Source: Psammoneis japonica
Lineage: Eukaryota
Length of the DNA: 64,000 nt
Assembly: GCA_008632985.1 (NCBI GenBank)
Contig: QPGO01000199.1
Location: 62,001 to 126,000 of the forward strand
Direction: 5' to 3'
This document shows, one piece after another, positions 1 to 64,000 of the stretch. Under the pieces are notes generated by a model. That model did no database searches. It was not told where the DNA came from and saw nothing but the letters and a program-made list of their open reading frames with translations. Each line of letters opens with the position of its first letter. Positions within the stretch are counted from its first letter, which is position 1. The translations under genes were made by a program, and so were the position numbers.

Positions 1-3000
1 CACCTCAAAACTCATGCTTTTCCACCAGGGCTGACAGATGAAAATGCTGACTTTCTGTTTCAGTGGGCCAAGACAACAAAAATCTTGCTGTTGTGTGGGG
101 TGCATGGGTTGAGAAGCTGACAAAGGCATTTGTGCCAGATGGGCCTCATTGGCTGGCATTTTTTGTGGTGTTTTCTGTGTGGCCAGAAGTTTGTGTGTCC
201 ACAGTGTGCAAAGTGCTTGTGGCACTGCCTTTGCAATGAACTCTTCTCATCAGACCACACAGGCCAATGGCTGTTGCAAAGTGGTTGTCTGTCCCCCTTT
301 CACAAAGTCTGTTGAGAAAACAGATGCTTTTGGTGCTCTTCAACTGGGGTGCTCTCATCACTGTTGCATGGATGACATTGGCATTGAATGTGCCCATGTC
401 CACACAAGCCTGTTCACCACCAAAAAACATGTGCTCTGAAAAAACATGTTGTCTCAACTGTGATCAGAATTTCAAACTGCTGACTGTGACAAACCGACAT
501 TGTGCTCTGTGCTCCAATTCAAACTGCTGACTGTGACAAACAGACACAGTGCCAAGCATGACAACAACAAACCACAAACTTTGTTGGCAGTCTTGCAAAC
601 AAACTGCAAGAGTGTGGCTGCATGAGTGGCCATGATTGGGAGGAGCTCAATGTTTCTGAGGGTCTCATGTTGCAAGCTGTGGTTGATGAATGCAAAAATG
701 AGGAGAAATGCTGAAAGAGATGCTGCTGCAGTGCGTGACAGACTGCTGCCATGACACCTTGACAATGGCTTGAAGAGCCAAAATGTGGTGCATTTCACAA
801 AGAAGTCTCTTCCTCTGATGCAGAGAGGAATCTGAGAGAGCAATGATGACAAGTGGTGCTTGTCACAGGACTGGAACCAGAGATGGAGGCAAGAATGCAC
901 ATCTTTGAGCAGCTGAGTTTTGTGCCATGCTGTTGGGCAACATCTGGGTGAGTTGCTCAAGGAACCACATGGCAGCTTGGTGGGTGGCAACCAGATGCCA
1001 GTGGCACAGTCTAATGACAGGGGAGCCACAGAAGTTGAGAGTTGGATGGAGGGAGATGCAAGCACAGCTTGGTGCTCAGCTGCTTGAGGATGATGCTCAG
1101 AGCTCAGGCAGAAAATGGCGGGCCTGGCAGGCAGCATTGGATGAAGCCCTCCAGCTGCAGAAAGGCGCGCCATTTGCTGGGGTCATTGCGAGACACCAGC
1201 ATGTTTTGGGATGGGCAGCCACAGCAGAGGTCAAGTGAAGAAGAGAGAGGGGGAGAGTGTGGTGCAAAAGACAGGGTTGGCATCAAAAACCTCCCTGCAA
1301 ATCTCACAAGAGCACTCATTAAAAACGTTGATGAGGTCAAGGGTGAAAAAGGAGTGTGTTGGAATTTCTTCATCCAAGCAGCAGCAGCAGCCAAGGCAGT
1401 TGAGGCCACCTTTGGTGGCTGCCATCCCTGAGAATTGTCTGTCTCTGGGAGGAGGGAGCAGAGGCAAGGGCAGGAGCCTTGGCAGTCATGGCAAAAGTGC
1501 CTTGACACACTGGGTGGCCATGGGGCGCAACTTGTTGGGGTTTGTTTGGTCTCTGTGTGGCGCCAGCACCAGATGGACAAAGCAGCTGGCTGGCATGAGC
1601 AGGCTGATCTCATCAGGGGGGCCGCCAAGCTGGCTTGAGCCAGGAGAATGAGCTGATTGAGTGTTGCAAAGCAGGGCCTTGTTTTGGATTTGAGGGTGGT
1701 GCAGAGACTTTCAAGAGGGGGCACAGGCCTGGAGTGCATGTCAGCAGCAGAGTCGACGCAACAGTGTGCCTGGCTTGCACACTTGCTGAGAGCTGCCAGG
1801 AGAAGAGCTGCTCATCTGGCATTTGAAGGGTGGGCAATTCGGGGAGGGCACAGGGATTGTGTGATGGGATGCGAACGGGGCATCATGGCATGGCTTGGGG
1901 GCATCGACAAGCAAAGAGCGGACAGACAGGCAGACGTTCACTTCTAAAAAGCGAGGGACGACATGGAAACCGCAAACGCACACACCCAAAAAATTTGGCG
2001 CGCGATGTTCTCGTGTTCCGCTTTGCGTGTTCGTTGCTTCCATGATGCTCCATGCACTGCACACACAAATGAACGAGAGAAAAATCGTGTCACCTTGAAC
2101 TTGATGCCGGATCCATCCTTCACCTCTTTCTCAACAACAACATCCATCTCGTTCGCATCAAGCATTGATGAAATTTTGACAGACATGAAGCACTTCAGTC
2201 TTCTCATTCTTGTTTCGACTCTTGCCAAGTCCATCAATGCTTTTGCGGGGGTGAGCACTCGCCCTTTTGCCGCTCATCATTCCCAGGCACCTCGGCCAAA
2301 ATTGATCCTCATTGGCGGGAGTCCTGGTGCTGGCAAATCAACTTTTGGCATGAGAGCGTGGCACTCGATCAGGGCATGCTGAGGTGCACATCTGCCGATG
2401 CAGTTCAAGCTGTCATGAGATCTTTTGTCAGAGAGGGTGTTAGTCCAGCCCTTCATTGTTCTTCCTGCGAACCATCGGGAGAAGATGACAACCCCGTCAA
2501 GAGCTGGAAAAAGACTTGCACAGTGCTGGAGGCGAGTTTGAGCAGTCTGGCTCTTGACGCCATTGAACGAGGCCAGAGCCTGGTGCTAGAGGGAGTGCAC
2601 ACAATGCCATCGTCCGACTTGATTGAACTGTGGGAAGCAAGCGGTGGAGTTGCGATTGGGTGTCTCTTGACCATCGCTGACGAAGAGGGGCACAAGGGAC
2701 AGCTGCACCGCCGTGGCCCAATGACTGGAAAGGATGCGCCAGAGGAGAAAAAGATCAAGTCCTTTGAGCGGATTCGAGCTGTTCAGGATGAGATGATGGC
2801 TCTCGCTCAAGCTTCCAAGAATTGGGTCCTTGTCGAACAGAATCTTGCGCCCAATCCGCTCGACATCATCCAGTCAAAAATTCTGGATTCCACTCTAGAA
2901 GCAACCAACTCTGGTGTGCCAACCCTCGAAGAATTGTCTCACTTGGAGCAGCATTTGGCACAAGTGGAGGAGGAAATGGATTTGGCGCCAACCGAGGAAG

Positions 3001-3090
3001 CATCGGAGGAAGATGTGCCTGGCGATGGTGTTCATCGCGAAGGAGCTTCATTCTGAGATCATGCTTTGAAAATGTGTGCAGGAATGCATG
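1..3090. other. TpA-depleted (hypermutated) block 1
   Basis: TA dinucleotides are almost absent. CG is also nearly absent in about 1-1000 but present from about 1750 onward. Overlapping Tyr-free, Cys/His-rich ORFs occur in all frames. TA resumes at about 3095 (gctagtctagctacc). Confidence 0.85.
2185..3056 (+). pseudogene. P-loop kinase-like (2-phosphoglycerate-kinase-like) protein with N-terminal signal peptide, TpA-mutated and frameshifted
   Basis: MKHFSLLILVSTLAKSINAF leader, Walker A LILIGGSPGAGKSTFG, frameshift near 2355, then ALDQG..C.S.D.V.AVMRSF...SPALH.SS and SLVLEGVH motifs. The protein contains no Tyr. Confidence 0.7.
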
Positions 3091-4594
3091 GTGCTAGTCT
3101 AGCTACCTTATGTGTAAAAGCGACCCTAACGCTGCCTAAAATCAATGTGTGTCAGCATCAATGCTCCTGCTCCGACAAGTCCCTGCAAAATGCAGCGGGA
3201 GAGAAGAATCATTTGTTCTGTCTCAGAGAGGAGATTTCCTGACCATCTGTCACTGTTGTCATTGCATGCAATGCAAGACACATTTTTTGGAAACATAAAT
3301 GCCATTGCATTCCTTCTCTCTAGTCTACTCTCTAGTCTCTAGAGAGCCTGCCGCAAAAAGGAAACAGGCTCTCGCACGTTTACCAGGACCAGACCGGCGG
3401 AGAGACACAAATCAGTCACGAAACGGTTGACACTCGTGACTGACTTCTCAAAGACCAGCGATAGACAGCAGATTGAAGATGGCAGATGCCATTGCGACCA
3501 ATTGCGACGATGTTGTAGTTGTAAATTGTGTGGCAATTCTCAACAGCGAACGAAACGAAGACTTGTTTTGCAACGGAACGGGCTTTATCAATTACCATGG
3601 CATTGCAAGAATCGTAATGCAATGATAAAGTGAGTTTGCTACTCTACGGGAGAGAGCATGACTGTTGTTGAAGCTCGGCAGGATTGTTCATTGCGTACCG
3701 GTACTCATTTCTCTTTGTGCCTACGTTCGCACTAGATTCCTCTCTCGATAACGAACGCCCCAACGGTTGCGGTGCTTCGACTAAAGACAGAACCAAAGGT
3801 GACGGATTTAGGAATGTGTGCGATTGAATGCAATGGAAAATCAAATGGAAGACAATTGGTGTAACAGTGGCGACGAAATAAATCGGGCCTGACAATCTTA
3901 CAACGCAATTACTTGAATACAAGAACGCGGAAAAGAAAAAAAGTTAGGAACAAAGAGTCGAGTCCGCACAAAGCAAGCGCAAGATGATCGAATGCAGATG
4001 GTTCATTCGCAATCACTGACGTGGGCATTGTACAATTCCTGGTGCCAAAGCTGGTGCAGATCCCACAAGTCGTTCGATGCAGAAACCTAACACTCTCGCA
4101 AATCTCCATACTCTCACAGTCACGACATTATCGCCTATAAAGAGCAAAAGACCCAACAATAACTCTCTTGAAGACTCCTGTTGTGATCGAAACTAAGGGA
4201 AAAATCGCGTTGTCTCCCTAACGAGGGTGCTGACTTGATGAACAAAATAAGAACTCTGGAATTGATAGATTGAAAATAAGCAACAGCGCATCTACAATTG
4301 GCACTTCCACGTCTGCTGGAGAAGCAACAGCGGAAAGTGATGGAAGTGAGACTAGCTAGAACACCGAACAGAACGTTGCAGTCCCAGCATACTGCGACAC
4401 CTCGTGACAAATATGCAGGCTAACGAGAATGTCCACAACAAAAACAGCAGTTACGGGATCGACTCTAGCCTCGAGAGTCACCGAATAAGCTTGACGAAAT
4501 GGCTGGAGAAATCATTATGTATGATCTTTGAGGATACTGATTAAAGCGAGAGTCAGTCCAGGTCGAGTGTGCTGAGAACTCTTCTGGCGACGGC

Positions 4595-9650: not shown

Positions 9651-9967
9651 TGCCCAATGGCGCCAGGAGATAGTTGATAATGTAGATGTTATACTGTTAG
9701 ATGCTCGAATTGTGAGACGAGATAGAACAGATCTCTCAGAGCTACTCTCTCGGAGATCTCGTGAAATGTGTAGAACGTAGTACTTGAAGCAGTGATCAGA
9801 AACCGAACCCAGACACACACAATAAGTCATTGAAAAGACTTATGGTGTTTAGGATAAGTCATTGAAATGACTTATAGAGAACACGGAGAACATTCTGAAG
9901 AACTCTGATGTATATGGATAAGACACGCACACGATACACTTACGGACAGACACATACACCCACAGCA
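9651..9967 (-). repeat. 3' LTR of gypsy element (largely unmutated)
   Basis: Direct repeat of 14357-14673, preceded on the minus strand by the PPT. Contains 23 TpA. Confidence 0.95.
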
Positions 9968-14356: not shown

Positions 14357-14673
14357 TGCCCAATGGCGCCAGGAGACAGTTGACAATGTAGATGTTGTGC
14401 TGTTGGATGCTCGAATTGTGAGACGAGATGGAACAGATCTCTCAGAGCTGCTCTCTCGGAGATCTCGTAAAATGTGCAGAATGCAGCACTTGAAGCAGCG
14501 ATCAGAAACTGAACCCAGACACACACAATGAGTCATTGAAAAGACTCACGGTGTTTGGGATGAGTCATTGAAATGACTCACAGAGAACACGGAGAACATT
14601 CTGAAGAACTCTGATGCACATGGATGAGATGCGCGCACGATGCACTTGCGGACAGACACACACACCCACAGCA
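14357..14673 (-). repeat. 5' LTR of gypsy element (TpA-hypermutated)
   Basis: Aligns without gaps to 9651-9967 with 30 transitions. Only 2 TpA remain. Confidence 0.95.
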
Positions 14674-15480
14674 CATTCCGGCTTGGCGAACAACAAACAC
14701 ATCGTGCCGCAAACAACGAGTCGAAAAAGAGAGACAACACACCATCAAGCAAAATGAGTTGTGGAATGCCAAACAAATGCAAGGTCTCAATCCAGAGGAA
14801 GGGCGAGCCATCCTTGGCGACAACGGCACTCAGGCTTGGCAAACAACAAGCACATGGTGCGAGACGACGAGTTGTGAGCGAAAAACGAGCGCGGATTCTC
14901 AGAGATTTTGAGTCATGACCGTTGCTAAATTTCTCAATCACTGTCACTTTTGTGCATCCTCGCAGAGTTGTCACAGTGATTTCGCATGCACCGGAGGCAT
15001 GTGAACAGCAGCGAGCTTTTTTTCAGGATCGCCTCACAGACCCCAAGACCCATGTGTCGGTGGAAAGCTCTCGATGAGCTGAACAAGGTCAAATGCATGT
15101 TGCATTGGTCGGAGTGAGCAGAAAGCGAGCGTTTGTCGCTGAAAATTTGGCACTTGTTTGAAGAAAAACAACGGTCACATTCGCCTTTTTCCAATTGATT
15201 TTTGTGTTCACACACAAACATCAATCGCATCATAAATTTGACATTTAATCCGGAGTTCCAAAATCTCATCCAGGATTGCATGCTGTGCAAATTGCTTGTG
15301 GGACACCTTGTTTCTGTGCTTTGCTCTTGCTCTGCAGCTCTTGCAACTGAAGATGTCGAAAAAAGGCTTTGGTCAGTCGCTGCAACTGGGTGTGTTTTAG
15401 TGACTGACGAAAGCCGATTTTCGATGAGCATTTTTGGTGTCGAGATTTTTCAACAGCAAAAATAACTTCGCTGCTGTTTA
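14370..15480. other. TpA-depleted block 2
   Basis: Covers the gypsy 5' LTR, the flanking DNA and a MITE. TA is very rare while CG is largely retained. Confidence 0.85.
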
Positions 15481-15491
15481 CATGCCTCCGG
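14991..15491. mobile_element. MITE with 24-bp terminal inverted repeats
   Basis: ccggaggcatgtgaacagcagcga (14991-15014) versus tcgctgctgtttacatgcctccgg (15468-15491), one mismatch. Flanked by CA on both sides, probably an edited TA target site. Confidence 0.75.
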
Positions 15492-15535
15492 CACGGTAGA
15501 AGATTCGTGGGAACTCGGTGCTTTCAAAAATGCTA

Positions 15536-19800: not shown

Positions 19801-20414
19801 ACAAGGCGCAACGGAAAGACCCTGTCACAGGCGCTCGAGGCGGGCAAGGATGCCAACTTTATTCTTCTGGAAGGTTGGACAAACATGGCCGAGAGTGCTG
19901 GTTTCTACCGTAGCTCGGACTTGGAGTATCCAACCCAGTGTGTCAACATTGTACGGGAGTATGCCGACTTCTTTCCTGAAACGTTGAAGTTCCAAGCCGA
20001 GGGTGCGGATTCATTTCTTGATTCCACTCCCGCCAATCTCGGTGGTCACTACGCGGATCGTGGACTGGATGTGGGCAAGCTTAGTGACAACAGTGGATGG
20101 TATGTTGGCTGGACGACTAAGGGAGAGTGGTTAGAGTACAAGAATGTTCAACTTGGATGCGGGACGTATCGTTTCACGGCGCGTTTAGCAACCAAGGCTA
20201 TTGGCAAGAAACTCCGGCTGGACCTTGGTGGCTTGCCAAGCATTGAATTACCATTTACTGGTGGTGTCTTGACCATTGTCAGCTAGTTCATTTGGGCGAA
20301 GTCAAGCTACAGGAAGGCAAGCATGATTTACGGTTGGTCATGGAATCCACTGGCGGCCTCAACATTGATTGGTTCTTTGTAAAACGCAGCTCCACAAAAT
20401 GTGTTGGCGTGTGA
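16810..20414 (+). CDS. Secreted multidomain protein: calcineurin-like metallophosphoesterase, Pro-rich linker, Ig-like domain, Cys/Asp repeats, DUF5010-like domain, CBM6-like module
   Basis: Signal peptide MKSLPRFAPVLVAFLPLVTG; phosphoesterase motifs ADGPY, HLGDIK, VGDNEWNDC, IFGHA, LYLHGDG; repeats DLCPDDPDKLDPGVCGCG; VMFHGRG...LEGWTNMAES; C-terminal WYVGWTTKGEWLEY. Several GT-AG introns and frameshifts. Confidence 0.75.
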
Positions 20415-22332: not shown

Positions 22333-24419
22333 ATTGGGTCGAATGACGGGCCCGTAGACTAGCAGGAGATGCCGATTCAATGACGAAAAAATGTTGCTAC
22401 ACAACCGTAAGTTCCATTGCTATGTACGTTAGTGATAAATCTGTTTGTGATGTGCTATCTAGTTCGAATCGTTGTCATCACTGTCGTTGCCTTCGTCTTC
22501 CTCAAGATCAAACAGATCCACAGTGCCTTTCTTTTGTTGTAAACACACCTCCAATCCGACGTGAGTCACTCATCTTCGTTCTTCCTGTTTTCGACGACGA
22601 ATGACTATCGGTAGCTGCGATTCCAAATCGACTGTTTGCAGATGTCGCGCTGTGTATGTGTACATGTATAAAACGAGAGCAACAAGGTGTGAGGATTTGC
22701 TGCACGCTGGTAGAAGTTACAATACATACCATAGGTTGAACTTACTCGTGGCAAACACCGTCCATCATCGACTGTGGAGTCGTCACCTTTTTCTTGTATG
22801 GGCATGGGCTGAACGTTGACCACGCCGTGTGCATCCGACCAGTCGGACACCAATGTACCGCCCAAGATTTCTTTCTGCTATGATGGACTGGGAGCACTTG
22901 GAACACAGACACAACCGCAACTCCGTGGATACTGTTTCGTCAATGTTGCGGTGCACCAAAAGGGTCCTCTTTACCAGAACCACTATCCGAACCTGACGAC
23001 AGAGAGCTCTTGACGTCATCCCCACAATTACAGATTTCCTAGACGTGGCAGTTTAGATAGAGGTAGGCCGAAGCGACTCTTAAGGTAGTAGTCCATGGTA
23101 GCTTCTTCGATACATGCTCTCCGCTGGCACTGTCTAACTAAGCGGAGTACAAACAAGTCGGATAGAATCGCTTTGTCCCAAAGACTTGTGACACCGATTG
23201 CAATAATAGCAGCCCAATGACGGCTTAGCGAAAGAGCCTTGTCGGTACTATTATTGAGAAGGTGTGGAAAGAAGAATCCAGTCTATCGTCCGTTTGAGCG
23301 GCCACGTCGTTTTCGATTCCGATTCTTGTGGGGATCACAACAGCGCCACTTGCCGATGGCAAATTGAAACAAATTCATGTCACAGACTCTGTAACCACAA
23401 ACTCTGTAAGAGAACGCCTGGGCTGTTCAAGGACTTCATCGGCAAGGCGATGTACACTGCTAGCCGCGTTAACGATTGTGGGCGTTTCAATCTGAGATTT
23501 CTCTTGGCCTCCTGTGACTAAAACAAATGAGATCAGTAAAGCTCGTGTGAGCTACAACCAAGCTTAACAGCAACCACTCTTACAAACGACAGACCCGCAA
23601 CACAAGCTCACAGTTCAAAAATCTTCCTCGGCTGAATTTGGAGAACGGGGACGCAGTGCATGAGAACAGTCGCCAAGCTTCTAGAAAAAGTGCTCCTAAT
23701 TTTGGAGCCGCACCACAAACGCAAAAAAGTGTTGTTAGACACATTGTTGCATTGATGGCTTGGTTCGCTCACCAACAGTGGCAATCCCAACAAAGATTCA
23801 GTGATGCTTGCGCTGGTGCTTTCTTCCCCAAAGCACTCTGCGCTTGTTGAAAATGGTCAGCGGCACATGCCTTTTTTTGGAGTTTCCTCACAAGGCCAAG
23901 TCCTTCAATGCACCCTTGGCCTTGAAATATGACGCAACTGGCCTCAGCAATGTCATCAAATCTCTCAAACCGAAGTGGAAATCTGCCAGGAGGGCAATCC
24001 AAAATTGAGTCGTCACCAAGAGTGCATCACTGGTGCATGCCAACTCCTCAACAGCCTTGGGTTTCTTCATGTCAGTGGCCAGAGCCTTGCTGCATGTGTC
24101 TCCAACACGGCAAACAAAAAAAAAAGCTTGGGATTCTGCTTCAGCAACCACACTGCAGAGTGAGTGCTCCAATTGCCACACCAGCCAATCATTCACTTGA
24201 ACAATCCCCCAGAGAATTGATTCATGGCAGCAGATGATGCAGGCACATCATTGACACTCTGACCAGTGTGAGCTGAAACAAAACCTGGTGCACATGATCT
24301 TGTTTCACTGTGCACCTTTCAAGCACCAGTGGCTGAATGAGGCTCAGCAATTGTGCATCATCAAGTGGATGAAACACTGCCCACAGGGATGCCATGCAAT
24401 CTTGTCTGATCATTTTTGA

Positions 24420-25230
24420 GTGGCTTGCACATGCTTTGCAATTTTGCAATGTGGACAATTTGACAGTGATGTCAGTGGGCACAAAGCACAGGCATGTGCA
24501 TGGACATCCTGCTTGTCATCACAAAAGGCACGTTGGATGACCACATCAAGAAGGTGGGCGCCATGCTTCCTTGAGAAGCTTGAAGACACTGGACTTCAGG
24601 TCAGCACCTCAACATTGCTGTTCTGTGGAGTGGGCTTGTTCTTTGACTCTCAAGAAAAAAGGTTGAGAAATGTTGCCAGGCCAAAAAACAAGAAAGAACT
24701 TTGGTCATTCAGTGGCACAGTGAGCTCCTGCTGAGATGCATGGTTGCGCAGATTGAACATTTTGGCACCCCTTGCAAGATTTGCAGGCTGGGCCATGAAA
24801 TGGGAGGTGACTTCAGGCCATTGAAAGAGAAGTGCTTCTAAACTGTCAAGTGAGCAAAACATCAGAAGAGACACTTCTTGCATCTGGGTTTTGACAAACT
24901 GTTTGAAATCTTTGCCATTGGCTGCATTCAAACACACAACCCACAGCAGCAACATCTCAAAACAAAAACCTGTTACACTTTGCAGCAACAGACAGCTGAG
25001 CAGTGCTCAGCTGACTTGTGCAACAGCAGAGCAAGAATCATTTGCAATTTTGACACTCTGAAAAGTTCAGATCCACTTTCTGCAGCTGTGGTTGTTGCAC
25101 CATTGTGCACACAGATCACAAAAACTTCATGTGCAGAGCACTCAAAGCTTGGCATGAAAAGAATGCAGGCCTGAGCTGAGATGTGTAATTCCATCCCAAT
25201 TTAATTGCAGGCTGCTGTCTCAGCCATCTC
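24420..25230 (+). mobile_element. Heavily decayed gypsy pol relic (RT/RNase H/integrase remnants)
   Basis: ILLVITKGTLDDHIKKVGAML, PKNKKELWSFSGTVSSC*DAW.RR..ILAPL and HLGFDKLFEIF match the typical gypsy motifs YxDDLLxITKGT..DHL, P..K.ELRSFLG.VNYY and YPDF..PFEI. Confidence 0.65.
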
Positions 25231-25609
25231 AACCCAAGCCAGGCCAATTTTTGACTCTAAAAAATGTTGTCCAACAGTTGCAAAAACACACCTGAAGTGC
25301 ATGATCTTAACAAGGCCTTTGCAAATGAAGCAAGGGAGATTGCAATGACTCCCACCAGGTTCAACAAAAGCCAACTCAAACAGCCAAAAAATGGTCACCT
25401 GTTGCAAGACAGTTGCATTTTGCATGACTGTTCTGCACAGAAATTCTGTGAAGGAGAAATGAGAAAATGTCCAACAGACAGCTGGTTTGTTGATGAAACA
25501 AAATTTGAGTCACAAAATCAATCTCCTGTGTGAGAAGCTTCTGGTGAAAAAATGTGGCAGAGATTGTCCCTTTGAAAGCCTTTTGCATTTTTCAGAGATG
25601 TCATTGTCA

Positions 25610-27000
25610 GAAAAACCTCTGGTGGAAAAGTGTGAGTCAACAGAAAAAGTCACTTTTGCCAATGTTTTTGCACTTGCAACTTGAGCACATTCTTCCTTCA
25701 TGTCCCAAAAAATGACCTCAAAGGGGCAAGCACAGTTTGGGTGGCTTGCTTGACTGCAGTTGTGGCGGAAAAGCTGAGTTGGGGCAGGAGGCCAAGAAAC
25801 CTGGTGGCAAAGTGTCAGCCAGGAGAAACAAAGTCACTTCCACCACACATTGTCTGCACTCTCAGCATCTGAGTGCACTCTCCATGTCCCAAGAAACAAG
25901 CTCAAAGGGTTGATCATAGACTGGGTGGTTTGTTTGGCTGTGCTGCAGCTGTGGCGGCAGAGCAGCCTCTGGTGGGTGGGCAGATGTGCAGCTGGAGGCA
26001 AAGTGTCAAACCACAGAAAAAGTCACTTCTGCAAACATGTTTGCAGTTTTGGCTTCTGAGCACACTCCTTGTGTCCCAAGAAACATGCACAGAGGGTTGG
26101 GCACAGCTTGGGTGGCTTGCTCAGCTGCAACTGTGGTGGCAGTGTGAAATCTGGGCAGCAGGCAGAAAAGCAGTGTGTGGTGGGAAAGTGCCAGTTGGCA
26201 GAAAAAGTCACTTCTGCCACATTGTTTGCATTTTCATCTTTTGAGCACACTTTTCCTGTCCAGAAGCATCTTGTCAAACAGTTGAGCACAGTTTGGGTGG
26301 CTTTGGTTGGCTGCAGTTGTGGTGGCAGAGCAGCCTCTGGGTGGGCAGAAACTGCTTGAGGGCAAGTGTCAAACCACAGAAAAGTCACTTGTGCCAATGC
26401 ATTTGCAGCCAAGGATTCTGAGCACACTCTTCATTTCCCAAGAAACAACTGCAAAGAATTCAGCACAGTTTGTGGGGCTTGCCTGACTGCAGCCATGGCA
26501 ACAAAGCAAAGTTTCAGCAGCAGGCAGAGAAGTCTGGTGTGTTGAACCTCAAAGGGTCAAGCAAAGATTGCGTGGCCTTGTTTGACTCCAATGGTGGCAG
26601 CACAGCAAAATCTGGGCAGCAGACAAAGACAAAGAAGGGTGGCAGCAAAATGTCAGTTGGCAGAAAACATCACTTCTCCCAAATTGTTTTCACTTCCAGC
26701 ATCTGAGCACACTCTTCATGTCCAAAGGCATCTTCTGAAATGGTTGAGCACCATTTGGGTGGCTTGCTTGATTGCAGCTGTGATGGCAGAGCAGCCTCTG
26801 GGTGGGCAGAAACCCTTGCAGGCAAAGTGTCAAACCTCAGGAAAAGTCACAACTGCCAATGAATTTGCAGTCTTGGCTTCTGAGCACTCTTCCAAAAAAT
26901 TGCTTTTGCCAAACTTTCTGCACTCTCAGCCACTGCTGAGCACACTCTTCATGTGCCAAGAAACATCATAAAATGGTTGAGCACAGCTTTGGTGGCTTGC
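25610..27000. repeat. Degenerate tandem repeat, unit about 185 bp, about 7 copies
   Basis: Recurrent ggcaaagtgtca..cagaaaa(a)gtcactt..ctgagcacactct..tgtcccaagaaac..gcacagtttgggtggcttg near 25620, 25805, 25995, 26180, 26360, 26645 and 26820. Confidence 0.8.
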
Positions 27001-28978
27001 TTGATGAACACGCCAAGGCTTGCTGCTGTGCATTGCAGCTTCATTCTTGGACTGGGGTGCACTGGGCACTGGAGTGTTGGCATTCTTTCCTCAGGTTTTC
27101 CTGCTTTTGAATTCATCATCTTGAACAAAGGCTCGGGCGAATCGAGTGAGACATGGCAAAAGATGTGTTGCATGTCATTTTTTGCATGATGTGGAGTGGG
27201 CGACAAATCAAGATCGTCGCAGCGATGTGGCAGAATGTTTTGGAAAGTCCACCAAAATGAGCTGTGACAAGTGTTGTCACACAATTGGATTGTCAGACAT
27301 GAGCACTTCCCAGTTTGTTTTGTGAGCACAACAGCTCTTGCTCCTGCAACCTCTGTCGGTTTCATGATTTGATTTCACAGGTTCTTGAATGCACTGAAAA
27401 AGCTTCAGGCCCACAGACCAACCACCATTTGTGTGCATCAAACATTGCCAAACATGAACATTTAATCCTGCTTGCTTGACACAGAATGTCATCTCAAGAC
27501 ACTGCTGTTGATGAACTCAAAAGGCTTTCATTGACATTCTCAAGGGCTTTCTCCACAGGGGCTCTGTTCTGCCAACTCCAAAAGGGCAGAGAAGACCAGC
27601 CACCACCTGCCATTCCAAGAGGAAATCCCATGGCTTTGGCAGCTGCAGAAAGCAGGCCACCAAAGTTGTTTGTTCTGGGGCTGGCTGCAATGACTGCAGT
27701 CAACACAAGAGTGATGTCAATTTTTTCTTCTGCCACTTTGAGACTCTTTGATTCATCATCTGCATTTCTGTGAGACAGAAGTTCACCACAGCATCTGCCT
27801 TTGTTGGGCACCAACTTTCTCTTTGTGCTGTGTTCATGACTCTCCACTGATGCTGTCACAAAAATGTGCACACAAAGGACCTTCAACTGGAGCACCAAGC
27901 ACCTGCAATTTGTGCTGCAGTGCAACAAATCAATTCCTTGGCAATTCACATGGCAACCAAGAACTCATCCCCCCCAAAAGCAGCTGATGGCTGCTTCCCT
28001 CTCTGCAAATTTTGCTGCCACATTGGCTGAGAGCCAAAAATGACAGGAGAGCACTCTGCACAAAAGCCAACATGGCTTCAGAAGCTTTTTTGTGTTGAAA
28101 CAGTGGCTGCAAGCTCTGGTGGCTGTTGCAACAAATCTCAGGGCTAAAATGCACATGGGGACACTTGCAAATGTTGAAAGCCCGGCTCTGCACCTGCTGG
28201 GGTTGGAGCAGGCCAGTTGGTGCTCCGAGCTGATGGCTGCTGGCTGGCCCACTTCTCTGGTGGTGGCTGGCTGGCCAGCAGTGTGCAGCCCTCACTTGGG
28301 GGTGTCAAGCTGAGTGCAACAAAGAGCTTGCTTAAGGCATTGGCATGTCATGGTGGAATGCACCCAGCTCTGCAACATTTTGTCTTGCCTTGCTGCTGAC
28401 AGAGGCAACAGTGATCACCAGAAAGAGGAGCACGGGCAGCTCGGACAAAAGAAGCAGCAAGGAAGCCAGCGGTGGTTTGTTGCCAGCACAGGCAACAATG
28501 AATTGAGAGGCATCAATTTTTCAGCACCTTTGGACAGGAGCAACAGATGTGTTTGACTGCAGATGCTTTGGAAGAAACAACAAGAGGCAGAGTTGTTGCC
28601 AGTGCGCGGAGCCTCGACGGGGACGATGGGGCGGTTCGTTCGGCACTGTAGCACGAATCGCGTGCGACGTTCCCTGTGCACTTTTTACGTACGAGAGAAT
28701 CAACGTGTTGTGTTTGTGCAGTGCGAAAAGCGTGGACGTGCAAAAAACTGCGCTCCATCTGTCACTTGCTTGTTGCTGCTTGTCTCTGCTTCAGCGGCTT
28801 CGGGTGCCTGGCTCTAGGAGCAGTGTTGTGTGTTGTTGCTGTCTGCTGTTGCTGCTGCTGTTGCTGAAACCAACCCATCATCATCGAAACAAACCAAGCC
28901 ACGTCTTCTAAAGATCGAAACTTTCAAAAGCAAGCCTTGTTGCAAAAAAAAAAAGCCGTTTGAGCAGTTTGATTGAAT

Positions 28979-51208: not shown

Positions 51209-51291
51209 CCACCATCACATTTCGTGCCGTCTGTTATCCCCCCTCCATCACGTTTCGTGCCGTCTGTTTTCCCCCCTCCATCACGTTTCGT
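51209..51291. repeat. 33-bp tandem repeat, about 2.5 copies, upstream of the transposase
   Basis: cc(a/t)ccatcac(a/g)tttcgtgccgtctgtt units. Confidence 0.8.
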
Positions 51292-55440: not shown

Positions 55441-58400
55441 ATGCATAAATTGTCGGTGAAAGTGCCGAGCGCTTCGAATGTGAGGGCTGTGGATCAACGC
55501 CTCATGCAGATACCAATAAGCCACAACGAATTATAATAAGGACTGAAAACCTGGATCGTGACGAGAGATAGCCGAATCCGTGAGTGAGTGAGTACATTTC
55601 TTTTTAAAAAAAAATAGAGAGAGCCATTTTGTAGCAAACGCAAGAACAACGGTAATTCTCCAAGAAAGACAAATCCATTGCAGGACAACAACGAAAAGAC
55701 ACACGCGCGTTTCCATACCACTACTTGGAACTTACGAGATGCAATGGATGTGAAAAATCAACGGTTCATAGATCACTTCTTGATGATGATTCAGTGTCAT
55801 TGGATGTGTTTGTCACATTGTCCTTGTATTTGGGCAATGCAATACAAAAGAGAAATAGGTCCGAAGTTGGAAGGATGAAAGTAATGAACACAACTGATTG
55901 ACACAACGTGGCTTCATCCCAATTCAAAGCAAACGGCTTAAGCTCAGCAATCCAAAAACGCCATGGGAACTCCATTCACTCTAGCAGAGTTTTCGGCGTT
56001 TGTCTCTTAAGCTTCAAAACGAAATATTTGTCAAACGAACGCAATCTCGTCTGTAGGTTTGTGGCTTCTTTCATCCCTCCGGTCCTCCGTGGTGTTTGAC
56101 TCGGTAAAGGATGTCCGCTGTTGAACGTGAGCTGTGATTGGAATGTTCCAGCGACTAATGGCCACTAGCTAGAGAGCGCTTCAACCTGCGCTTCAGCTTG
56201 GTCGGTGAAAGACGTGCGCGGCATATTCCCTCATTCTCATTCTTTGTGACTTTGGTGTTGCTGGTAGATGGCACTGCAGCTGTTCCGCCGTGGAATAAGC
56301 TGCAAGACAGAACAGCATGATGATGCTTTGTTCCACTGTGGTCGACGCATCAAGATTGCACACATCATCAAAGATTTGAAACGCGCGAAAGATCCGCAAT
56401 CCGCATAACGCGTTGAAGAGTGTTCATCCTCCTGCTGAAGATTCAAACATGACTCTGCCTCCGACTGGTGTTCTATGCACTGCCCATCCTAAAGGACTTC
56501 TTGAGGATGTGCCAGCTTGTGGCCAACAGGACACTTCCCCTTCCGGCAACACTCACGGATGCGGGAAAGCTGTTGTGCTTCCTGCTGCATCTGTGACCTG
56601 TCCCATGCATTCTCATGGATTTAAGGCATCCAAGCTGGGCCCAGTTGCTGGGTCCAGTGCATGTGACACTGATGCTGCTGTTGTGTCTCATGTCACAGGT
56701 GCGCTCGCTGTGGACACTCGGATGGATCCTACGGATGCTAGTTCCTTGACTGTCAAGTCCACTGTGTCTGTCATGGAATCTGTTGGCAAGCCATCTGCAG
56801 TTGTTGACACTGGATCCCTCGAACTTCCCACCGAATCGGTGGCACTTCCTGCTGAAGTCCAATCCTGCCTGCTCGAGACCCCAAAGTTTTTTGTTTCTGG
56901 CCATTTTGTTGTTCCACACAAAGATGGCCATGTTCGCCCCAGTTGTGGACCATCCTCTGTTGTCAAGGTTGCACCCGAGTTGCTTGCCACCCACACGCCG
57001 CCGTCGTCTGTTGCTCATGGACGCTGCCAGTGCTTTGTTGGTTGTCAAGTTGATTCAAAATTGGATTTTTGGTTCGGCCGTCGTTGGTTTCGGATGTGCG
57101 ATGCTGCCGTTCCTTCTCTTGTCCGATCAAGACCAGCGGAAGCGGGGCAACCCTGAAAGAGGGCCACCGGGTCTCATTGCCTCCCGCCATTTCATCTCTT
57201 TCCTCTGTTGTCAGGGCTGTTGTCGCATCCATTTGTGCTTTTCACGGTGCTCCGGACCTGTCCACCATTGCCGATGATGATCCCACATTTTTTGATCAGG
57301 GAAGGGATTCCCATGGTGCAGAGGAAACATGTCAGGCCATTGAGAACTCAATCTTCCGCCAAGACACCTTGCTTGACGATCACTTTTTGAACGCCGTGCG
57401 ATGCTCACCTCCGATGCGTCACTGTTCTTCCAACGTTGAGCAACTTCATGATGTGTTCTGTTTCTCTAACATGTTTTTCAAGGGCGACACAAAGTGTGGT
57501 GGCAGCATTGGTTTGCCAGGTGGGATGCCATTGCTTCATTTTCAACGCATCACTTGCCATGGTGGATTTCCAATTTTTGGCCCCATCTCTTCCGATGATC
57601 TTTGGCAACAGGATGACTCGCCAGAGTGTCCCGTTGCAGTCGATTGTTTGTGGATTGACAAAATTCTTCTCTGGTGCACGACTCAATTTGTCCAAAAGAT
57701 TCATTGGGAACTGCCTTTGACATTTTTTGTCAAAGACCGACGCGCTGAGCATGAGATGGATGTTTCATTCCCGACATGCTCGTCCCTTGATGGGATGTCA
57801 TCATTGATTGTTGTCATGTTTGCGGACCAAGTCTTGGCCATTTCTTTTGGTGCTCTTCTTTGTTCTGCTGTTCTGGCCCTCTCTTTTTGTTTGGATCGTC
57901 TCTTTCTTGTTGAGCATTGCATTGCTCATCAGGGGAGGGTGACAGACATCCGAGATGGGGAGCACACTCCCTTGTGTCGGACAGACCAGCATGGACAGCA
58001 TGGAGAGATCCGATGTTCTCTCCTTTGCTCACTTTCTTTCTGATCCAGCACATGATCATCATCTGTCCTAGACATCCGTTAGATTGTCCCGATGCCACCA
58101 GTCCATAAATTGCAAATGTTCCATGAGACTCTTTGGTTCCTGGTGCCTCTGAAAAATCCACAAAAGATGCCATTTGTGGTCATTTTCATGTTCAAAACTT
58201 CTCTGTCAACAAAGAGACGGCATTCCACATCTCCTGCTTGCACCTCTTCCTCCATTTCTTTTCCTCATTTGGGTGGCCTTGGTGGAGACGTTTGCTGTGT
58301 TGCTGCTTCTTGACAGTGGCAACATTGAGACACACAAATCCTTTTGATCAGACCTCGCCCAGAGAATCAGAGCAAATGATTCACAAAAGGGTTGACAGCA

Positions 58401-58889
58401 GGCAGCAGGACAGTCACAATGACCAAACAAATGTTTGCAAGACACAAGATGCATCATGCACCAGGGTTTCATGAATTTTTGTCAACTGCTTCTTTCTTTT
58501 GGCTGGACTTGGACGGGTGTGGCACGTTGCCACTTTGTGATGATGGTTTGCACTGCTTTGATCCACTTGATTTGGATGAGACAGAAGAAGCCCAACTTTT
58601 GCAACCTCCGTGCATTCAGGAAACCAATGCCGCCCCCCATGAAGCTTCATTCCATCAAGAATGAGTTGGCTGTGATGACAAAGATGTCTCTCCCACCAGC
58701 TGCACAAGTCTTTTTTTCTGTCTTGGGCCAAGCATGCCAAGGAGAGTGATTGCAAGTGCAAGTCTTTGTCCTGCTCTGCCACTTTGCATTGCCATCAACA
58801 AAACAGCTGGCTGCTCTTCTCCGCTCAACAAGCAAATGACAGAAGCCATGAAATCCAACAAATGAAGTCAAACCAATGAGCATGGTCAG

Positions 58890-60500
58890 GGAGCAAAATC
58901 TTTGTCTTGGGCAGCAGCAACCCATTGCATGAATCCACTGGAGACACAAAGATTCCCAGCTGCACAAGGTGTGCAAGCCTGAGGCCCACAGATGTGGCAA
59001 AAGAGGTGCGCAGTTGTCTTGGGATGATGCTGGGATGTGTCTTGGGCAGCAGCAGCCCCTTGCATGACTCAACAAACAGGAAGGAGTTGCACATCTGTGC
59101 AAGTCGTGCTGGAAGCATGAGGCCCACAGATGTGGCAGAGGAGGTGTGCAGCTGTCTTGGGGTGGCCTTGGACAACTCCAACAGGTCCCAAGGGACGCAA
59201 CAGCAACAATGATTGGATGGCAAAGGCCTTGTCTTGTGTCAACACAGCCCCTTGTTGCTCTGACATGTGACTGGCTTGCACACCCAGCCACCCCACCCAC
59301 AGAGACAAGGGAGCTTCCTGTGCTGACAAGAACAATGGCTGGGAAGCAAAGGCCTTGTCTTGTGTCAATGCACTCCCTTGTCTTTCTGACATGACTGGGT
59401 TTGGCCCAGCTCTCCACCTGCAGAGAACACCAGGGAACCATCTGTGTGACAGAGCAAGTGCACAAACATCCAAGATGACTCCATTGTGTTCCAGAGGACA
59501 CAACAACAACAACGGCTGGGGAGCAAAGGCCTTGTCTTTTGTCAACACAGCACCTTGTCTTGCTGAGATGACTGGGCTCCATTGCCCAGTCACCCAACCT
59601 GCAGAGAACAGGGAACAATCCAGCATGTGACAGCACAAGTGCCAAGTTGCCTTGGGACAGCTTTTGGTGACTCCATTGGGTCCCAAGAGACACAACAGCA
59701 ACAATGTTTGGGGAGCAAAGGCCTTGTCTTGTGTCAACACAGCACCTTGCCTCTCTGACATGACTTGGTTTGGCCCAGTCATCACCGCCACACCTGCAGA
59801 GACAAGTGAGCCACCTGTGCAACAGTGCAAGTGCTCAGTTGTCTTGGGATGGCTTTTGATCACTCCATTGGATTCCAGGGGAGCCAACAACAAGAACAAC
59901 TGGGAAGCAAAGGCCTTGTCTTGTGTCAATGCAGCACCTTCTTGATCTGACAGGACTGGGTTTGGCCCACCCAACCAAGCTGGAAAGACAAGGGAGCCAT
60001 CTGTGTGACAGCGCAAGCACTCAGTTGTCTCAAGGCAGGTGCAAGAAGCTCCATTGGGAGACACCAGTGGAGGCAGCAACAACAATGGTTGAGAACAGAA
60101 AGCCTTGTCTTGGGCTGACACAGCTCCTTTTCTCTCCCATGTGACTGGCTTGTTTTTTGGCCCACTGGCCACCACAGCACCTGCCTGCAGAGACAAGAGA
60201 ACCATCTGCACAACCATGGGATGGCATTTCAACAATGAGCAGGAAGCAAAGGCCTTGTCTTGTGTCAATGCACCCCCTTGTCCCTCTGACATGTCTGGCT
60301 TTCACCCAGCTGCTGCACCTGCAAAGACAAGCACTGACAATGGCTGGGAAGGGAGCGCCTTGTCTTGGGCCAATGCAGCTCCTTTTGTCTCTCTTGATGT
60401 GACTGGTTTGCTTTTTGGCCTGGCTGCTGGCTGGCACACCTGCCTGCAGAGACAAGGGAGCCATCTGCACGACAGTGCAAGTGCTCAGTTGTTTGAGGTG
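58890..60500. repeat. Degenerate tandem repeat array, unit about 110-190 bp
   Basis: gcaaaggccttgtcttgtgtcaa..cctgcagaga recurs near 59220, 59346, 59523, 59715, 59907, 60100, 60246 and 60357. A related pair lies at 58905-59160. Confidence 0.8.
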
Positions 60501-60969
60501 AAATGATTGGAGTGGGGGTCATGGGCCACAGCATTCTTGGTGGCAGGTGGATGGTGGATTTGTTGTTGACAGAGGTGGCAGCAGTGGCAGGTTGTCAGCC
60601 AGAGTTCTGCAACAGCTCCAGTGTGGCAGAGCCTTCATTTGTCTTGGGGCTCCTTGTGCTGCACACTTGTGGCTGAGGTGGAGCACCATGACCAAGACTG
60701 CTGCCAGCACTGGAATGGTTGGCAGCACACGGATGGCTGCCGCTGCCTCCACAAAGAGTTTTTTCACATTTTTTTTTTGCGGCCTTGTTGCAACACATCA
60801 AAAAGAAAATGTGGTTGTGAGGGCAAGCAGATTGTGAAGATTGAAGCATCGGAACATTGAAAAAAGATGGTGTGTGGCAGCAAAACTGTAAAAAATTCCA
60901 TCTCAACAAGAGCACACATGCAAAACCTCATCCAAGTCATCTCAAATCATTTGAACCTTCAGAGCTGAA

Positions 60970-63900
60970 TGTGAGCATGAAATTTAAACAAAGTTGTCAC
61001 TTGGGACGAACAAATCCCGATGCAGTCGCATGAGACAATGTCACACCTTGAGCCTGAGAGTGGCAGTGACAAACAAAGCAAACCCTGTTCCGATTGTGTT
61101 GTGTGAGATTGTGCGGGAAAGAACAACAGCCAAACCGTGCGCGCCAGCCCCGGACCAGGGGCTGACCGCCCCATCCAGATTTGCTTGGTGGCAGTCACAA
61201 TGCCGATTCGTCTAAACGCAGAACATCCTCTCAAAGAGAGGCAAACACAAAAACCCAAATTCAAACCACCAGCTGTGCTGGCTTGGGAGGCCAAGACACG
61301 TGGGCGTGAACCGCAGGTGCCTGGCCTTGGCGTTGGGACGCCACCAAAAAATGCAAGAACAAAGCTTCCAGCACCGCTCGCCTGTCACCAACTTCGTAAA
61401 CAAATCCGCCAAGTTCGTGTCTGTGTCCTCCTTTCCAAAGCGAATGACACCAGCTGCTGCCGCCTCACAAACCACATGACAGTTAACGGCATTGTGCTTC
61501 TTGTGCAGTGCAGATTCCGGGACACTGACATTCTTCACCATGCCGTGGTCATTGCAAAATACATTGGCAGGGCCTTCGATCAGTGCTCCAAACATGCGAA
61601 GCTTGCAATGCAAAGCAACAGTCAACTCCTTGCAAATTCGCATCGCACAACCAACTCGCCACCAAACATTGCTGACTCCACTGTGTTCTGCCGCTTGCCA
61701 AACCAAATGATCAGAGCATTGTTCACAAATGTCAAGATCCCGCTGTGTGACCTGCGAGCAATGACATTCCCCGCATGGTCAGCATCAACAAATCCAGACA
61801 CATTTGCTGGGTTGCCACGGGGCTTGGGCATCCGTGGCAGCAACTCCTCCTCAACGTCCCCACAGAACTCCATCCAATCTGCAGCAGAATTGAAAACAGA
61901 TTCATCAATCTCAGGCATCTTCGGATCAGTGACCAACATTCAAATGCTTCTTCATGTGCGCAAACACGTGATGCAATGCTTCGAGGTGCCCTTTCCTTGG
62001 GTTGGCCTGGCACTGAGAGAGAACAGAAACTTCATGCAAGATGTCGACATGCCCCAATTCAATTGCCCAGCGACAAATGCCAATCAGCTGCAAATGTCCA
62101 TCCACCGAATTGGGTCCCAACTCATCTGTCACGTCCAATTCCGGCTTGCACTTGGAAGGCAATGGATCCTTGGCATTGCTCTTCAAGACTGCGCCATCTC
62201 CATCCTCTTCCAACAGACCTTCCACCGTCTTGATCGCCGACTTGATGTGTGATTTCGGTGAGCTTGCCCAAATGGTGCGCCCATCTTCGGTCTGAACCTT
62301 CTTGACATTGGCTCCAAGGCACAACGCCAGTTCTCCTTCGCTCCCAGGTTTGACAGCAAACGATTCACCTGTGCTCTTGACGATGGACTTTCCTTGATGG
62401 GAAATGATTAGAATGTCATCAACACACACGAGTGGCATTTCACAATGCTCGTGCCCATCATCGCGAGTTGCTGCACAAATGCACATGTTGGGATCCACCT
62501 TCGCAGATTCAAAACCCACACCCCACAAAACCGTTGGTCCTGAACTCTTCAAACCATGCAGCGCTCGGGTCACAATTGGCACCTTGCCTTGATGCTCCCC
62601 GCATTCCTTGCCACCTTCGAACCAAATCTTTTCCGCGCACGGGGCATTCAAACACGCGTTCTCCAGGTCGACAGCCATGGCATCCACTCCATTCAAAGCT
62701 GCCAATGGAAATCCTGACCACACGCTGTCCCTCGAAATGACACTTGAATGTGTGATCTATGATGGTGTCTCTGCAGTGTGACCTCCTGCAACAAATCTGG
62801 CCTTCCCAGTGAAATCCATCTTGACGTCAAACACCAAGTGGCAGCTGATCTCCTGATGACCTCACAAAGTTGTGCTCTTGCCTTCCCGGACAACTTGAGG
62901 GGTTTCAGCTTCGTGTTCGCGCCACGCGACCTTGCGCGCGACCTTGACCTCATTCATCTCCTTGTTGGTTGCACGAGCCCAACAGTCTGTCCCCGTTTCC
63001 TGGTCAATCTTCAAAGCATCTTCCGCAGACTTGGGCAAATGCGTGCCGAACTTGTGGGCAGTGTGCCAACATTTCTTCTTAACCTTTGAAATGATCCGAT
63101 TCCGCTTGCGCAATGCGTGCGCAACCCACCAAGCAAAAGCTGGCTCTTCGGTCAACCTGTTCGCAACAGCATGCTCAGCAACTTCAATTGGGTTAGATTC
63201 CTTTAGATCCTTGAGCTTCACCCATGACAAGCCACCATCTTTCCATGTGACCAGTGACTTCCATCCTTTCGCAGTTGTCTTCTTGTGTTCCTTCCCGTCA
63301 GCCACATGGACTGTCCCTTCCTGGGTCGGCATCGCTTTGCCAGTCTTCTCATGGTCCTGCATCTCCTGCAAGATAGAATGTTGGTTGCCTTCGCTGTCAA
63401 CTTGAGCAAACATGTTCTCCGCGACTGCATTGGCAGCACACTTGTCCATGGCACCATCAGTGCATTCAATCTCACATTCGCGGGTGTCAAACAATGGACT
63501 CTGATGTCGGGTCCCAATCGGTCGCCCATCCTGGCCCGTGCTCGTTTTGCTGCGACTCCTTGTTGCTCAGCATTGGTTCCAACATCAAACACAAGCTCCA
63601 TTCCCAGATGTTGGTCGATGGCCTCTTCGTTGTTGTCCTCGGGTCGTTCTCCTGGCAACAACATGTCCCCGCATTCCTCATCGGTTGGTGTCACACCACC
63701 TTCATGCTCCACTCCGGGGTTGCCGTCGATCGCGACATCATCCAAAACAAATGCCGGTGCTGCTTCATCACCTTGCAAAACGAAGTTCGTGTCATCCAAT
63801 TGTGTCTCCAGTTGTTTGTTGAATTTGTCGACTTTCACACGAATGTCCGGTTGCACCATGTCAGCCTGTGTTGCGTGCTCGACTGAAGTCTTCGAAACTG

Positions 63901-64000
63901 TCTTCCCGGATTCCGTGACAATCCAATGGCACATGTCTGATGCAACACACAGCTGCTGATAAGAGTCAATGTATCACGGCGACGTGTTGCAGCATTTAAA
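60970..64000 (-). mobile_element. Second Ty1/copia element (3' half, runs off the window), TpA-hypermutated
   Basis: RT DLENACLNAP, ALHGLKSSG, LVCVDDIL; RNase H FVDADHAG, QNTVESAMFG, NLADLFTK; PPT gagagga near 61226-61232; candidate 3' LTR about 60970-61225. Confidence 0.88.

Follow-up and report, generated by a model that had tools for sequence, protein, structure and literature searches.

The stretch analysed here, 64,000 nucleotides deposited under Psammoneis japonica (contig QPGO01000199.1 of assembly GCA_008632985.1, positions 62,001 to 126,000 of the forward strand) and called the window from here on, carries near its end the remnant of a Ty1/copia-type retrotransposon polyprotein gene (pol) in which the dinucleotide TA has nearly vanished and with it the tyrosine codons. 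TA was converted to TG or CA, and this conversion runs in one direction, is specific for a single dinucleotide, strikes both strands equally, took place after integration into the chromosome, is locally confined and goes to saturation. Such a local, post-integration hypermutation of TpA to TpG or CpA, acting at the DNA level on the repeat block in which the copia element lies, is probably what killed the element.

A copia-type pol remnant without tyrosine

Positions 61344 to 63946 are the reverse transcriptase (RT)-RNase H part of a dead Ty1/copia-type retrotransposon, the 5' part of which lies beyond the window end at base 64000. The remnant is a dead member of its family because its RT has a CVDD box (encoded with TGT), because there is no tyrosine in the 854 codons of its reading path and because this path is broken by three frameshifts (near 63550, 61937 and 61648) and two in-frame stops. 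The features of the remnant, including its domain-bearing open reading frame (ORF), are as follows.

61344..63946, minus strand: Ty1/copia-type polyprotein gene remnant (integrase-RT linker, RT, RNase H), from tblastn of 249 intact relatives and phmmer
63946-63551, 63548-61938, 61936-61649 and 61646-61344, minus strand: pol reading path, guided by homology to the 249 relatives
61926..62756, minus strand: RT domain ORF, 276 amino acids, with NACLNAP, ALHGLKSSG and LVCVDD replacing NAYLNAP, ALYGLKSSG and YVDD
61344..61939, minus strand: RNase H domain, split over two frames, with VDADHAGN, LHCKLRMFG, HNAVNCH and TNLADLFTK
62862..62864, minus strand: in-frame TGA stop in the reading path
62757..62759, minus strand: in-frame TAG stop in the reading path, holding one of the few leftover TA
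62424..62426, minus strand: TGT (Cys) where the RT YxDD motif has Tyr in 95% of 195 aligned relatives

Overlapping stop-to-stop ORFs are found at 61.2–64.0 kb of the minus strand, with RT and RNase H motifs in their translations. A phmmer search of 1.84 billion representative proteins with pol gave 3521 matches at E ≤ 0.001, 78 of them at E ≤ 1e-30, the best being 2e-71 at 51% identity. Many of the matches are polyproteins of about 1330–1420 amino acids, the pol part corresponding to a region near their residues 850–1150, and in relatives of about 1350 amino acids the RT is located at residues 810–1030 and is followed by RNase H and then the end of the protein. Since RNase H follows RT up to the C-terminus, this is the gene order of copia. 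Named relatives include an RT of the diatom Fragilaria crotonensis (56% identity over 52% of the query) and Alexandrium tamarense (37%). The Pfam family RVT_2 (PF07727), which scores 38–86 bits in relatives (76–86 bits in the intact P0002 and P0003), reaches 12.2 bits (E 0.13) on the RT ORF 61926–62756, below the cut-off of 31.6, and the rve domain was not found by Pfam at E ≤ 0.001 in the relatives P0002, P0003 and P0152. No second copy of the copia pol was detected inside the window by tblastn or blastn. A copia element of another lineage at 30693–34873 on the plus strand, apparently intact (RVT_2 at 4e-29, gag_pre-integrs; normal TA), is too distant to be used as a close relative of pol (best BLASTP E 0.2).

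Direction of the mutation

An earlier note on this DNA had listed seven pol motifs in which conserved tyrosine codons appear as His or Cys codons, and the minus strand contains all seven with the codons given: LVCVDD (TGT at 62426), ALHGLKS (CAT at 62558), ENACLNAP (TGT at 62654), ALHCKLRMFG (TGC at 61607), HNAVNCH (TGT at 61481), EVAEHA (CAT at 63173) and EALHHVFAH (CAT at 61973 and CAC at 61958). Its statement that the pol ORFs contain no Tyr at all holds for the path 63946–61344 (0 of 854 codons) but not for the minus-strand ORF 63218–63973, which starts with YIDSY; these two Tyr codons, at 63973–63959, lie outside the range that the note had covered and upstream of the first aligned residue. 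Tyrosine is absent because the dinucleotide TA is nearly gone, positions 61300–63950 (2651 bases) containing 9 TA as compared to 154.6 expected from composition and to a minimum of 125 in 2000 shuffles. Leftover TA are found, for example, at 62758, 63080 and 63194.

Is the tyrosine-free copy the derived or the ancestral state? The alignment that had been recommended as a check was made with 249 intact relatives containing at least 2.5% Tyr, and columns were counted where at least half of the relatives agree (510 columns). The window pol keeps the consensus residue in 379 of the 510 columns, which amounts to 379 of the 487 non-Tyr columns and none of the 23 Tyr columns, the latter reading His in 11 cases, Cys in 11 and Phe in one. 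If 70% agreement is demanded 0 of 16 Tyr columns are kept (9 Cys, 7 His), and at 90% agreement 0 of 6 (4 Cys, 2 His). By our own arithmetic, the chance loss of 23 out of 23 Tyr columns at the 78% retention found elsewhere has a probability of about 1e-15.

Each changed column was then classed by its one-step codon path and the neighbouring bases. Among 131 changes 44 are single-step changes of the TA type (23 TA>TG and 21 TA>CA), the remainder consisting of CG>TG/CA (22), other transitions (15), transversions (24) and multi-step changes (26). Eight intact metagenome loci (L001–L005, L008, L009 and L012), taken through the same pipeline as controls, show 1–7 TA-type changes among 59–118 and keep 16–30 of 17–31 Tyr columns. 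Substitutions are therefore concentrated in TA contexts, as had been anticipated, and the predicted side changes are also seen (I>T 5, I>M 1, I>V 8, V>A 8, L>S 1, L>P 1); T>A (4) and S>G (2) are further recodings at consensus columns. That active relatives might likewise carry His or Cys at the positions in question was not borne out, as relatives with long open polyprotein frames have Tyr there.

Because intact relatives have Tyr at these positions, TA is ancestral and TG/CA derived, in agreement with the earlier proposal. Taken by itself, a pairwise difference between TA and TG/CA carries no polarity, and it could be imagined that the TA-bearing copies were mutated by a process resembling repeat-induced point mutation (RIP), with C>T at CpA/TpG, and that the window copy is the ancestral one. 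This reading is next to impossible, since Tyr occupies the 23 columns in 249 relatives of many sources and a polyprotein devoid of Tyr, even in YxDD, is implausible as an ancestor. Ordinary RIP of the other copy had been dismissed from the outset, and this judgement stands because intact relatives keep Tyr and because the TA-bearing long terminal repeat (LTR) of the gypsy element described below is ordinary in composition; a RIP-like process acting on other copies is thus excluded.

Timing of the conversion in a gypsy LTR pair

A gypsy element at 9651–14673 contains an intact ORF of 1425 amino acids and is bordered by LTRs of 317 bases.

9651..9967, minus strand: 3' LTR (LTR A), ordinary composition, 23 TA
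14357..14673, minus strand: 5' LTR (LTR B), hypermutated, 2 TA
9646-9650 and 14674-14678: target-site duplication CATTC, 5 bp

The target-site duplication indicates that both LTRs stem from one integration and were initially identical. Today 30 of 318 positions differ between them, and 22 of these differences are a TA in the 3' LTR against TG (11) or CA (11) in the 5' LTR. The others comprise one difference in the reverse sense, two that together make up one CA/TG double difference and five CpG transitions, and there is nothing else. The observed/expected ratio (o/e) of TA is 0.89 in the 3' LTR (CA 1.19, TG 1.41) as compared to 0.10 in the 5' LTR; LTR A thus has ordinary levels of TA, CA and TG and LTR B is the aberrant one, which also speaks against the reversed direction. 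As differences between the LTRs must postdate the insertion, the conversion occurred on chromosomal DNA after integration, and as TG and CA arose 11 times each, both strands were struck equally. Conversion reached 22 of 23 TA sites with zero background change outside TA and CG in about 250 bases, by our own estimate a contrast in rate of more than 100-fold between TA and background.

Moreover, the conversion is limited to the 5' LTR and about 0.7 kb of its flank, with an edge between 14346 and 14377, at the boundary between LTR and internal region. The gypsy interior, the 3' LTR, the intact copia element at 30693–34873 and an ORF of 1557 amino acids resembling TNP all have normal TA. Since the identical 3' LTR and the gypsy interior were spared, being repeated is not in itself enough to define the target.

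These data also bear on the possibility that retrotransposon RNA was subject to A-to-I editing by an ADAR- or ADAT-like enzyme with a 5' U preference and that the edits were fixed by reverse transcription. The target is indeed a retroelement, and ADAR-type enzymes prefer U before the edited A (cited in Mettrop et al., bioRxiv 10.64898/2026.01.13.699255). Editing of this kind is nevertheless very improbable, because it predicts A>G on the sense strand and hence Tyr to Cys only, as opposed to the 11 His and 11 Cys observed, because the 22 TA conversions distinguish the LTRs of one integration and are therefore post-integration, and because the TA-free DNA of the window also includes tandem arrays, flanks and a copy of a kinase gene.

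As to which strand is hit, GTA became GCA in 4 of 4 cases in the LTR and xTAC became xTGC in 4 of 5, and in the Tyr columns of pol codons derived from TAC read TGC 4 times and CAC twice, those derived from TAT reading TGT 7 times and CAT 9 times. A neighbour-base rule for strand choice is suggestive only, the sites being too few to claim it. At 9763 the 3' LTR has one TG where its partner has TA, and at 9924–9925 there is the one CA/TG double difference; both may represent low-level TA conversions outside the saturated blocks. A stretch of 90 bases to the left of the 3' LTR (9547–9636) is 80% identical to 14730–14817 to the right of the 5' LTR, and for the flank 14675–15450 it is the only match outside the flank itself, so that the gypsy element may have inserted into an older repeat.

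TA-free blocks in the window

The pol remnant lies in one of four sharply bounded TA-free blocks, in which TA o/e is 0.00–0.13 and CA/TG o/e about 1.3–2.2, TA o/e being mostly 0.4–1.0 in the rest of the window. The blocks, and the tandem arrays found in two of them, are listed here without strand; the four blocks were delimited by dinucleotide counts.

56490..64000 (start approximate): TA-free block holding pol, TA o/e 0.00-0.13 per 500 bases, CA/TG o/e 1.3-2.0
14357..15397: TA-free block, gypsy 5' LTR and about 0.7 kb of flank
1..3094: TA-free block with a frameshifted 2-phosphoglycerate-kinase-like gene copy inside
23929..28648: TA- and CG-free block with a diverged tandem array of about 185 bases
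58900..60500: diverged tandem array, period about 180-190 bases, in a TA- and CG-free part
25600-27000: diverged tandem array with a period of about 185 bases in the TA- and CG-depleted part of its block

Three of the blocks (1–3094, 23929–28648 and 56490–64000) span at least about 3 kb and the one at 14357–15397 only about 1 kb. Their edges are sharp to within tens of bases, and mean CA/TG o/e is 1.59–1.86 in fully depleted 2-kb windows and 1.35–1.53 in edge windows. When the blocks (16,000 bases) are compared with the other 48,000 bases, TA is lower by 0.038 and CG by 0.035 per base (sum 0.073) and CA+TG is higher by 0.069, a book-keeping that fits conversion among pyrimidine-purine dinucleotides. 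CG is nearly absent in 1–1500, 24001–28500 and 58001–61000, mildly low over pol (o/e 0.6–0.95 in 61001–64000) and normal in 14501–15500. The loss of CG is a separate, slower decay of CpG to TpG/CpA in part of the blocks, which probably reflects deamination of 5-methylcytosine.

Could TA have been lost by selection, for instance against cleavage by a TA-cutting nuclease or insertion of a TA-inserting transposon, or by biased gene conversion, instead of by targeted mutation? TA is mildly under-represented window-wide (o/e about 0.5–0.8), as such a process would have it. A process of this kind is scarcely credible all the same, since the loss of TA ruins conserved residues of the element's own enzymes, since the blocks end within tens of bases and since the near-complete conversion of TA in the 5' LTR without change outside TA and CG would need a rate more than 100-fold higher than background.

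No similarity was found among the three large blocks (1–3100, 23900–28700 and 56700–61300), and no mutual similarity was detectable between the arrays at 25600–27000 and 58900–60500, for which Tandem Repeats Finder gave one weak row only. Outside the block with pol, 58 of the 59 ORFs of the TA-free blocks, including all 22 of 23929–28648, match no Pfam family at E ≤ 0.01; the sole match, Zeta_toxin over 22 residues, is the P-loop of the kinase-like gene. This gene copy (1948–3053, plus strand) is 52–64% identical to its homologues, which include transcripts of marine protist collections (MMETSP, EukProt), and has a +2/−1 frameshift near 2365. The only organism label that could be read among these transcripts starts with ‘Cosc’ and may stand for the diatom Coscinodiscus. 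Its single consensus Tyr has become Cys (TGC), and of 40 changes from the consensus 8 are of the TA type and 5 of the CG type. In TA-free DNA TGA is the only stop codon, and long ORFs therefore arise in all six frames, an example being an ORF of 381 amino acids antisense to pol at 61107–62252. This is also a warning, because such long ORFs are spurious.

Copies of the block in run X1

The stretch is contained in one public run only, here called X1, which is possibly the source sample of the assembly and for which the library type is not on record. X1 contigs at a depth of 55–80 match parts of the block exactly (58232–59249 and 62354–62611, 0 differences). A unique X1 contig ends at 56440, and from about 56534 onward the summed depth, about 74 before, grows to hundreds and then thousands, with 16,629 at 63743–64000. 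The TA-free block thus begins where multi-copy DNA begins, its start at 56490 being within about 50–300 bases of the switch from unique to multi-copy sequence. Differences among the X1 copies are transitions in 123 of 134 cases. The 32 copy-difference events listed include 6 CA<>TG double differences, 11 sites with CG elsewhere as compared to TG/CA in the window and 2 with TA elsewhere; independent conversion of one ancestral TA (or CG) in two copies would produce such double differences. At position 62758, within the TAG stop of the pol path, other copies of X1 have G.

Tyrosine-poor relatives elsewhere

Relatives with little or no tyrosine are not confined to the window. Among the 150 best library relatives, in which the median Tyr content is 4.3%, 7 are without Tyr and 3 have less than 1%, and His+Cys amount to 7.5–11.4% in the Tyr-poor relatives versus a median of 4.3% in the 150. 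A full-length polyprotein of 1377 amino acids, P0152, with 0 Tyr and the motifs FVCVDD, NACLNAP and LRCKLRMFG, clusters with one of the 7 Tyr-free relatives. By best-hit identity 20 Tyr-poor relatives fall into 11 groups (12 including the window copy), and in 9 of the 12 an intact protein is the closest of the listed relatives that do not belong to the group. This suggests that such events occurred repeatedly and independently. The Tyr-poor relatives come from ENA, JGI/IMG and Logan assemblies; gene callers evidently turn TA-free DNA into Tyr-free polyproteins in public collections. A scan of viral contigs with the Tyr-free polyprotein gave no match.

These relatives and the X1 contigs make it scarcely possible that the pattern is a sequencing or assembly artefact in which a modified base at TA was miscalled, even if the sole run with the stretch, of unrecorded library type, is possibly the source sample. 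Contigs assembled from exact k-mers at a depth of 55–80 reproduce the sequence, each site is a clean CA or TG without the mixture that would also give CG, Tyr-free proteins occur in three other sources (the ENA, JGI/IMG and Logan assemblies), and paralogous copies differ by CA<>TG as real independent conversions would have it.

Mechanism

How could TA be removed from one LTR and left in place in its identical partner? The most likely scheme would be the enzymatic deamination of the A that follows a T in chromosomal DNA (A to I, which is read as G). TpA has become TpG or CpA by A:T>G:C transitions, which are equally frequent on the two strands and have left hardly any TA behind. Tyr codons (TAY) have turned into His (CAY) or Cys (TGY) codons, including that of the RT YxDD motif, leaving the element dead, and the codons ATA, TTA, CTA and GTA as well as the stops TAA and TAG were lost together with TA. 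The target would be a repeat or silent-chromatin domain rather than a region of sequence homology, with spread in cis into the adjoining LTR, and the role of such TpA hypermutation may be defence against mobile DNA.

Alternatively, the T of TpA might be modified, for example by oxidation of the TET/JBP type to 5-hydroxymethyl- or 5-formyluracil, and mispair with G, which would yield T>C on either strand. In dinoflagellates TpA is the preferred context of thymine hypermodification, 5-formyluracil gives rise to T>C mutations, and the symmetric signature (21 TA>CA to 23 TA>TG in pol, 11 to 11 in the LTR) cannot separate A>G from T>C on the opposite strand. Thymine oxidation nevertheless appears unlikely: the window sequence says nothing on base modification, and the single study of this signature proposes adenine deamination with an ADAT2-like candidate, although it offers no enzymology either (Mettrop et al., bioRxiv 10.64898/2026.01.13.699255).

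Tentatively, the deamination scheme may be carried further. What is seen in the window could be a RIP-like defence in reverse, that is a TpA-directed deamination of chromosomal DNA leading to A:T>G:C, which might not be a peculiarity of one chlorarachniophyte but exist also in diatoms and be widespread in marine and freshwater protists. It would be aimed in cis at silent or repeat chromatin, could erase a single LTR of an intact element, would remove every Tyr codon together with TAA and TAG, and would leave ‘ghost’ ORFs behind.

Several points weigh against targeted hypermutation, in part against its role as a defence. One TA-free block carries a copy of a cellular-type kinase gene, so that the targets are not strictly foreign DNA. 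The process spared intact elements at a distance of a few kb and, of two identical LTRs, struck just one. Most X1 copies are 90–99% like the window and have most TG/CA choices in common, which would mean either that much of the conversion predates the multiplication of the repeat or that the context governs which strand is hit. If defence simply killed the element, it would also be hard to see how a Tyr-free copy could still multiply. Furthermore, X1 may be the source sample itself and alone does not exclude a platform artefact. Finally, none of 78 metagenome loci is TA-free (TA o/e 0.38–0.94), these loci having been retrieved with conserved-motif patterns from the best 80 of 531 relatives, which is not an estimate of prevalence, and from other sources Tyr-free copies were found as proteins only.

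Relation to known systems

To our knowledge, fungal RIP and the animal deaminases are the only well-established cases of targeted hypermutation that serves to defend the genome. In ascomycete fungi RIP changes C to T at CpA/TpG, makes TpA, lowers the GC content and mutates both copies of a duplication. Like RIP, the process in the window is a hypermutation by transitions that is local and dinucleotide-specific, goes to saturation and ruins repeated DNA; it differs from RIP in that TpA is destroyed, GC goes up and only one of two identical LTRs was struck. Fungal RIP is ruled out by the loss instead of gain of TpA and by the single mutated LTR.

The G>A changes by APOBEC and A>G changes by ADAR in animals are similar to the present ones in being transitions of the deaminase type with a neighbour-base preference and in inactivating retroelements. 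These enzymes act on replication intermediates or RNA and leave a strand-asymmetric pattern that is common to both LTRs, whereas the pattern found here is strand-symmetric, arose after integration and differs between the LTRs of one element. ADAR-like editing fixed by retrotransposition is ruled out because the sense strand shows T>C as often as A>G and because the LTRs differ.

The closest counterpart has been described in Bigelowiella natans. In mutation-accumulation lines of this alga, two regions of integrated viral DNA had 231 mutations, of which 230 were A>G or T>C, these all at TpA, and its genome contains 124 clusters poor in TpA and rich in CpA+TpG (Mettrop et al., bioRxiv 10.64898/2026.01.13.699255). 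Coding sequences low in TpA are enriched for RT, endonuclease-RT and DDE domains, and adenine deamination by an ADAT2-like enzyme was proposed as a defence (Mettrop et al., bioRxiv 10.64898/2026.01.13.699255). The locus matches every feature of the B. natans TpA hypermutation that can be tested in sequence: TpA is hit and becomes TpG or CpA depending on the strand, the clusters measure several kb, RT is affected, the action is local rather than constitutive, and many affected sequences are without annotation.

There are also differences. In the window LTR retrotransposons, tandem arrays and a copy of a kinase gene are affected, in B. natans giant-virus and virophage inserts; TA o/e is down to 0.0–0.1 here, which is saturation, as compared to 0.45 in the B. 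natans region derived from nucleocytoplasmic large DNA viruses (NCLDV); some of the present blocks are also CpG-depleted, which was not reported for B. natans; and the host genes are diatom-like, not chlorarachniophyte. Moreover, the rate was measured in mutation-accumulation lines in B. natans, and the LTR pair provides an indirect rate contrast only.

A literature search found TpA-directed hypermutation described in the B. natans preprint only and none in diatoms, so that the GC-raising version has been described once so far, in 2026 and for one alga. The window adds the same signature at saturation in a diatom-like genome, two independent and internally controlled proofs of direction (the Tyr codons and the LTR pair with its target-site duplication), action after integration and confined in cis, and Tyr-free copies of the same retrotransposon family scattered through environmental data. 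Diatoms are a major group of phytoplankton and some species are genetically transformable; the identity of the enzyme and the way in which it is aimed become directly testable questions. The diatom Ty1/copia-like CoDi elements resemble the remnant in their copia-type pol with RT followed by RNase H, and one named relative of the remnant is from a diatom; in the passages considered of the CoDi paper (PMC2806351) neither TA loss nor Tyr recoding is described, and its main text has no instance of the words ‘dinucleotide’, ‘tyrosine’, ‘degenerate’ or ‘point mutation’.

Other genes in the window

An ORF at 41418–42254 encodes a WLM domain (Pfam 6e-41), and its named best matches are all from diatoms, with 55–62% identity, namely Seminavis robusta, Fragilaria crotonensis, Mayamaea pseudoterrestris, Ditylum brightwellii and a transcriptome whose label begins with ‘Trice’. 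No match exceeds 64% over most of the query, and the top local identity is 70% over 70%. Judged by sequence similarity, the host genes of the window look diatom-like and not chlorarachniophyte. On the strength of these homologues the host is most likely a diatom, or something closely related to diatoms, that lacks near neighbours in the database, and it is not Bigelowiella. The 1557-residue ORF mentioned above, at 46541–51214 on the minus strand, has a TNP-like RNase H domain and normal TA and lies a few kb from hypermutated blocks. An intron-less ORF of 498 amino acids at 18790–20286 on the plus strand, also with normal TA, contains DUF5010 (1e-68) and the carbohydrate-binding modules CBM35/CBM6 and looks like an ordinary host or transferred gene related to glycans.

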